A stretch of DNA of 64,000 nucleotides, taken from positions 62,001 through 126,000 of the forward strand of contig NW_027590385.1 of the NCBI RefSeq assembly GCF_964213995.1, written 5' to 3'. The translations under genes were made by a program, and so were the position numbers. The notes under the pieces are model-generated. The model ran no database searches. It was not told the origin of the DNA and was given only the letters and a program-made list of their open reading frames with translations. This DNA comes from Mustelus asterias (taxonomy: Eukaryota). Position 1 is the stretch's first letter. The number at the start of each line of letters is the position of its first letter. Shown in pieces: positions 44,479-44,969 of this stretch.

Positions 44479-44969
44479 TTACAATGTTGTCTTAAGTGTC
44501 ACCTCCTCTGCTTCTGCTGAATATGTTACTGCACTTTGACCATCAGGTCCCTGTCCTCTGAGGAGTTGGTAGTCAGCATCTTTTGGTCGTTTCTTCAGGC
44601 TTGTGTATGTTGAATCTTGTACTGGAACCATCTGGGGAGTGTTAGGCTTAGTCTCATCTTGCCTTTGGAGGCTTGCAGCAGGCCCAGCCTCGGCCTGCTC
44701 TCTTATTGAGCCTGAGCTCGGCCCAGACTCGGCCTGAATTCTGAGGCTTGCAGCAGGCCCAGCCTCGGCCTGCTCGCTTAGTGAGCCTGCGCTAGGCCCA
44801 ACCTTATCCAGCCTTCTGAGGCCTGCAGCAGGCCCAGCCTCGACCTCCACTGTCAGTTGCGAAGACCGCTTTGGCCTGCCCTGCACCCGTTGGCCAGTGG
44901 CCTGGGCTTGCTCCTTGGTGTCAGGTTGAGTTCCAGGACTTAGCAAATCAGAGTAAATTCCTTCTTCTC
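44479..44969 (-). CDS. Receptor terminal exon: cytoplasmic tail
   Basis: Acceptor [22 protein letters not shown]..3x EAGPAA(S/G)[29 protein letters not shown]. Confidence 0.8.

Follow-up and report, generated by a model that had tools for sequence, protein, structure and literature searches.

The stretch of Mustelus asterias DNA analysed here (the window, 64,000 nucleotides) carries on its reverse strand a gene of five exons, for which our model gives a type I membrane protein of 330 aa with a signal peptide, one Ig domain, a transmembrane (TM) segment and a cytoplasmic tail (Table 1). All joins of the receptor gene are in phase 1 and have AG/GT splice sites. Nucleotides 44560-44616 encode 19 residues, aa 286-304 of the model, within a 168-codon open frame that is preceded by a splice acceptor at 44970; the tyrosines of the tail are at positions 173, 289, 301 and 317. 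The exon structure was matched in a protein search by NCBI models of M. asterias named 'uncharacterized protein LOC144486687', one isoform being of 330 aa and the other skipping exon 4. The joints 44968->49213 and 49239->49686, which span introns 4 and 3, were present in contigs of two of four public runs (X1 and X2, from two studies and with two organism codes), while in the remaining two runs neither joint was seen and intron sequence was covered. None of the four runs is on record as RNA; we nevertheless took the joints as support for splicing, since exon–exon joints are the product of spliced transcripts. Among the rows listed for run X1, no letter differences fell within 44560-44616. The receptor frame is thus a real exon, as seen from its splice sites, the matching NCBI model and the contig joints. 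In the AlphaFold model the Ig part has a pLDDT of about 63-83 and the tail is disordered, with values under 50 in its spacer.

Table 1. Features of the receptor gene and its surroundings, with the related gene on contig C8 (window positions unless a locus is named)
Feature	Position	Strand	Remarks
Exon 1, coding part: ATG and signal peptide, aa 1-19	62285..62342	-	Phase-1 GTGAGT donor; N-terminus as in NCBI model P0001/P0043; present in all five copies on contig C71
Exon 2: single CD2/SLAM-type C2 Ig domain	50740..51039	-	Splice sites, domain matches, structure comparison
Exon 3: short stalk, Lys130 (49768-49766), uncharged TM core I131-L151, juxtamembrane Cys152	49687..49797	-	Joint to exon 4 in read contigs
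Exon 4: basic juxtamembrane part, 33 nt	49214..49246	-	Left out of NCBI isoform X2; contigs show the joints on either side
Exon 5: cytoplasmic tail with four tyrosines, stop codon	44479..44969	-	Joint to exon 4 in runs X1 and X2
Membrane-proximal acidic single-YxxL motif EEGIYSDL (Y173)	44944..44967	-	Best-conserved stretch of the protein
75-nt (25-aa) tandem repeat, 2.4 copies	44668..44846	-	Determines how long the disordered spacer is
ITAM D-x2-YxxL-x8-YxxL (Y289, Y301)	44560..44616	-	Whole motif within exon 5
C-terminal motif T-[Y/F]-S-A-x-x-[D/E]-[E/Q]-V	44494..44529	-	Kept in six of seven genera; not an ITIM
70-nt tandem repeat, 7.1 copies	43939-44427		Just 3' of the stop codon
LINE-type reverse-transcriptase element	46073-48382		In intron 4; 609-codon open frame at 46160-47989
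Open TCR-alpha/delta-type V segment	10540-10839	-	Followed by heptamer/nonamer-like signal
Open TCR-alpha/delta-type V segment	15690-15989	+	Followed by heptamer/nonamer-like signal
Open TCR-alpha/delta-type V segment	19218-19517	+	Followed by heptamer/nonamer-like signal
Open TCR-alpha/delta-type V segment	25436-25735	+	Followed by heptamer/nonamer-like signal
Open TCR-alpha/delta-type V segment	27259-27561	-	Followed by heptamer/nonamer-like signal
Broken V segment	1630-1930	+	Frameshifts or stops
Broken V segment	2496-2795	+	Frameshifts or stops
Broken V segment	31970-32134	-	Frameshifts or stops
Pieces of the SLAM-like gene on C8	L051:2127-2560, L051:5285-5600, L051:9738-10000, L053:6754-6960		

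Close matches to the Ig exon number 12 genome-wide: five on contig C71 (20.4 Mb) and seven on small contigs, the window's own included. The seven could be additional copies of the gene or haplotype duplicates. Each copy on C71 (at 5.67, 6.87, 9.49, 13.39 and 14.73 Mb) has all five exons, and the copies lie in large duplicated blocks. In the 5.67-Mb copy an in-frame TGA precedes the ITAM, and in the 9.49-Mb copy a frame change does so, which is also found on C108 and C549; IYSDL is kept in both. Within the out-of-frame part of the C108, C549 and C71 9.49-Mb copies (L019/L020/L023), the old tail frame is 26 residues longer and adds a tyrosine, PAYSTF. The LINE element of intron 4 is missing from the 6.87- and 14.73-Mb copies, and a near-identical one is present in the region of the 13.39-Mb copy. 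All four runs cover the 70-nt repeat behind the stop codon to great depth; it is therefore a dispersed repeat.

The first-pass annotation had read an ITAM in the tail, and this reading was confirmed: Y289, Y301, the 8-aa spacer and an Asp at -3 are all in place, and YTSL-x8-YQLL agrees with the consensus YxxL/I-x(6-8)-YxxL/I, given with its recruitment of SYK/ZAP70 in PMC9231431. The further motifs that it had placed on either side, GIYSDL near the membrane (Y173, 44955-44953) and VTYSAE distally (Y317, 44523-44521), were also found there. On shuffling the tail 20,000 times, the ITAM pattern arose in 0.15% of cases, and in 0.02% with D/E at -3. Across all six frames of the window, 127,996 codons, the regular expression matched once more, so a match by itself proves little and the case for the ITAM rests on its coding status and its conservation. 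The Pfam ITAM model (PF02189) matched the orthologue of Mobula birostris at 25.4 bits, above the cut-off of 22.2, and that of M. hypostoma at 21.2 bits, just below it, while neither the Mustelus window protein nor six other family proteins were matched. Run against the genome, this model gave no match, and the controls were likewise without one. Pfam also returned no family for the tail exon or for the 37-aa motif stretch. Tail positions 242-272 of the family profile aligned weakly with residues 149-178 of CD3-gamma (E 4.5, not significant).

Orthologues were found in Scyliorhinus canicula, S. torazame, Carcharodon, Heterodontus, Stegostoma, Rhincodon (an Ig fragment only), Mobula birostris, M. 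hypostoma and Narcine. Neither the 23 matches of a full HMMER search nor the 12 of a profile search, in which 7995 candidates were scored and some known members were missed, included an orthologue from any group other than elasmobranchs; this silence weighs little as a sign of absence. Conservation of the ITAM was counted over the nine species, in seven genera, that have a tail. The check proposed with the first annotation, conservation of the tyrosines and their spacing, came out in its favour: the ITAM is complete in five of the seven genera and seven of the nine species, with a spacer of 7-8 aa, and both Mobula species have two ITAMs in tandem. The second tyrosine is lost in Heterodontus, and the second half is damaged in Carcharodon, where it ends in Cys (YQHC); in Narcine the downstream ITAM, which is the aligned one, lacks its first tyrosine and an upstream ITAM is intact. 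Each of these three tail changes comes from a single database model. The mean identity of seven other species to the window protein, with gaps scored as mismatches and a Carcharodon model that has no Ig domain, was 0.79 for EEGIYSDL, 0.63 for the C-terminal motif, 0.59 for the ITAM block, 0.39 for the Ig domain and 0.29 for the spacer. The ITAM block is thus conserved twice as well as the spacer, and the copy number of the 75-nt repeat in the tail differs among paralogues as well as among species. At the C-terminus, the tyrosine of T[Y/F]SA is Phe in Carcharodon and Mobula; since VTYSAE also has no hydrophobic residue at +3, the motif is probably a site that works independently of phosphorylation. 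The ITAM half of the earlier reading is therefore supported, by conservation in sharks and rays and by the Pfam match of M. birostris.

The damaged half-sites of Heterodontus and Carcharodon, together with the two of the five C71 copies that are cut before the ITAM, speak against a stand-alone ITAM receptor. They would fit a receptor whose core signal is EEGIYSDL, acting as a hemITAM-like site or as an SH2-docking site in a dimer, with the distal ITAM as an optional amplifier gained and lost by lineages and paralogues. EEGIYSDL has the highest identity of the whole protein, and it outlives the damage to the ITAM in both genera and in the truncated paralogues P0003, P0004 and P0006. Its tyrosine is kept in six of the seven genera. 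At least one ectodomain cysteine beyond the Ig pairs is present in all eight proteins checked (Cys28 in Mustelus), which suggests a covalent dimer. However, in Narcine this tyrosine is lost (ATCS) while an ITAM remains, and the Mobula ITAM is doubled. A hemITAM has an Asp before the Ile-Tyr position, and the Gly found there puts EEGIYSDL one residue off that pattern. We regard this alternative as unlikely.

The first annotation had also remarked that there is no charged residue in the TM segment, which it took to agree with a possible switch that needs no adaptor chain. The core I131-L151 is indeed uncharged, but Lys130 stands directly before it and was present in all eight family proteins checked. 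With an invariant Lys at the outer edge of the TM segment, the adaptor-free reading is not secured. The receptor could also pair, through Lys130, with an adaptor that has an acidic TM residue, of the FcR-gamma or CD3-zeta type; this would not exclude the other readings, and we hold it to be rather unlikely. Six shark proteins have Gln at -3 of the Lys (QxxK), and in both rays the Lys follows four hydrophobic residues and is located inside the hydrophobic run, 18 residues before the juxtamembrane Cys. QxxK may be seen as a conservative look-alike of the NxxR that couples TM segments, including those of Xenopus CD2/SLAM members, to FcR-gamma (PMC4536121). Against pairing, the 21 hydrophobic residues that follow Lys130 in sharks are enough for a full TM segment, the residues are Lys and Gln rather than Arg and Asn, the Gln is absent in rays, and an adaptor would be superfluous for a receptor with an ITAM of its own.

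The ectodomain points to the CD2/SLAM family. In exon 2, Cys45 and Cys92 form the B/F pair, and Cys39 and Cys109, nearly invariant in the family, align with the extra pair of the C2 domains of shark SLAM-like proteins. The carpet sharks Stegostoma (P0035) and Rhincodon (P0012) have lost the canonical B/F cysteines and kept the SLAM-type extra pair. With a profile of ten Ig domains of the family, the best 12 of the 25 matches listed were SLAM-like C2 domains of sharks and rays (26-50 bits; the next reached 21). The top C2 match belongs to a gene of the conventional V+C2 type on contig C8 and is its C2 exon. No closer paralogue was found in the genome than this SLAM-like gene (G000:C8 14.157-14.182 Mb), which has V, C2 and TM parts and a switch-type motif TIYDEI. 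When the AlphaFold model was compared with known structures, residues 108-193 of NTB-A/SLAMF6 gave the best match (Z 9.1, rmsd 2.1 over 77 residues), with three other Ig chains within 1 Z. In the Atlas, the best match of residues 20-160 was a short cluster, 'putative Isoform 2 of SLAM family member 8' (0.92); the Mobula protein matched allergin-1-like and FcR-like clusters instead. A tree of 32 Ig domains had an open base, an unsettled sister group and long branches that met. No PDB sequence matched the Ig exon, the profile or the motif at E<=0.001, and Foldseek with the whole model returned an Ig fold with no match at that threshold. Pfam Ig_4 (CD3-delta) gave a weak match (E 0.05-0.09).

SLAM receptors normally bind through a V domain and signal through ITSMs. 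A profile of five SLAM V domains detected no V domain in the window or in the 20 loci taken from around the gene copies, its best score being 4.8 bits against 132.5 for the control, and the search for an upstream V exon by ORF scan, TCR-V tblastn and the SLAM-V profile was negative throughout. In every full-length orthologue model the signal peptide leads directly to C2, with no V. An ITSM (TxYxxI/V) was found in none of 11 tails. The receptor shares with CD2/SLAM proteins (NTB-A/SLAMF6, the shark Ly-9-like and SLAMF5-like proteins P0018 and P0037, and the V+C2 gene on C8) the C2-set domain with an extra cysteine pair, the phase-1 Ig exon, the type I topology and tyrosine motifs in the tail; it differs from them in having no N-terminal V domain and no ITSM, in its ITAM and extra unpaired cysteine, and in its place on C71, not beside the SLAM gene of C8. 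These sequences are best read as a branch of the CD2/SLAM C2 lineage that has neither a V domain nor an ITSM.

The mostly V+C2 ectodomains of Xenopus CD2/SLAM receptors set these apart from the shark family, which is V-less and has been kept across elasmobranchs. The Xenopus expansion (Guselnikov 2011, as cited in PMC4536121) is a precedent for switches in the mode of signalling, including TM segments with basic residues. Among receptors that work alike, with the ITAM carried in the tail of the receptor itself, NFAM1 is an Ig-superfamily member with one V-like Ig domain, as against C2 here, and an uncharged TM segment. A second analogue of this working type, likewise of the Ig superfamily, is the G6F-like receptor of teleosts, which is named in the title of a reference in PMC10768021. 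Neither was among the protein-search matches or the Atlas rows listed.

The shark receptor resembles CD3-gamma/delta/epsilon and CD79a/b in its one small Ig domain, one TM segment and cytoplasmic ITAM, and differs from them in that it has no acidic TM residue (none in the eight TM segments checked, which have Lys instead), an ITAM that lies unsplit in one exon, and a 160-aa tail with repeats. In CD3, CD79, FcR-gamma, zeta and DAP12 the TM residue is acidic and the ITAM is split by an intron in its first tyrosine module (PMC4536121); as both features are missing, the shark ITAM probably arose separately. Identity with CD3, CD79, UrIg2 or CD4/LAG-3 was rejected on grounds of TM segment, exons and domains. 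A standard SLAM or CD3/CD79-type chain was rejected as well, there being no V domain, no ITSM and no intron split in the ITAM.

Elasmobranchs could also have made an additional ITAM chain from a SLAM C2 domain, independently of CD3 and CD79. Such a disulfide-linked module of a single Ig domain and an ITAM would work for an antigen receptor or a lymphocyte subset that is specific to elasmobranchs; in Mustelus it would have entered the antigen-receptor complex and diverged there into paired ITAM-bearing and ITAM-less forms. C71 is rich in V and C1-set exons, as is the elasmobranch antigen-receptor complex described in PMC12227049, and the five receptor copies stand among TCR V segments. In the window, three of the five open V segments pass a 23-RSS regular expression, and the broken ones at 2.8 kb and near 31.8 kb have kept a 23-RSS-like signal. 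The orthologue of S. canicula lies on a 198.8-Mb contig, whereas PMC12227049 assigns the catshark complex to an unplaced scaffold and to chromosome 17, with coordinates that reach 133.5 Mb; we infer that the two are on different chromosomes. Residence among V segments is then probably derived in the Mustelus lineage and only weakly indicates a link to the TCR, and we consider the additional chain improbable.

It had further been proposed that the first half of the ITAM, STYTSL, doubles as a dedicated ITIM and makes the receptor a switch between activation and inhibition. STYTSL does fit the loose ITIM pattern S/I/V/LxYxxI/V/L (PMC9231431), and fits of this type are seen in Mustelus, both Scyliorhinus species and Carcharodon, but it fails the strict consensus (I/V/L)xYxx(L/V) (PMC10768021), and its residue at -2 is not conserved. 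This residue is Ser in three of the seven genera (Mustelus, Scyliorhinus and Carcharodon) and Pro in the other four (Heterodontus, Stegostoma, Mobula and Narcine). The loose pattern arose in 13.7% of shuffles of the Mustelus tail, and in 6-15% overall. The strict form occurred in none of eight shark tails and in one of three ray tails, as LTYQPL in the second ITAM of M. hypostoma, where M. birostris has Pro in place of Leu; the distal VTYSAE offers no hydrophobic residue at +3. SHP-1 can be recruited by the ITAMs of DAP12 and FcR-gamma themselves (PMC3149228), so inhibitory behaviour would be possible with a plain ITAM and calls for no separate ITIM. The switch was not borne out, and we judge it decidedly improbable.

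A chance motif in a decaying gene that was carried along by segmental duplication of a TCR V field would account for the other match in six frames, the truncation of two C71 copies and the large duplicated blocks, but it is hardly credible given the open frame, the splicing and tyrosine motifs that are conserved in sharks and rays against a diverged spacer.

Taken together, we conclude from the sequences compared that the gene probably encodes a SLAM-derived, stand-alone activating immune receptor of sharks and rays, likely dimeric, with its own conserved ITAM. The left-over cysteine of the ectodomain would link two chains. On clustering by a ligand, a Src-family kinase would phosphorylate the acidic IYSDL site at Y173 and the ITAM at Y289 and Y301, and the tandem SH2 domains of SYK or ZAP70 would then dock on pY289 and pY301; clustering, phosphorylation and docking are proposed here because they are established ITAM biology. 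An inhibitory output, if there is any, would come from ordinary single-site phosphorylation of the ITAM, with no dedicated ITIM involved. Paralogues that are truncated, with IYSDL kept and the ITAM missing, may be weak or decoy partners.

We found no description of this receptor family in the literature, although subscription journals or bioRxiv supplements may hold one. SLAM, CD2, ITAM and ITIM do not occur in the main text of PMC12227049, and none of four orthologue LOC ids is listed in its two supplementary files. Few receptors have an ITAM in their own tail. If our reading is right, a V-less, ITAM-bearing derivative of SLAM would be an unnamed activating receptor in the oldest vertebrates with adaptive immunity, and the plan of CD3 and CD79, a single Ig domain plus an ITAM, can emerge a second time. 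The natural variants with one, two, half or no ITAM would allow its signalling to be examined directly in a conventional reporter cell.
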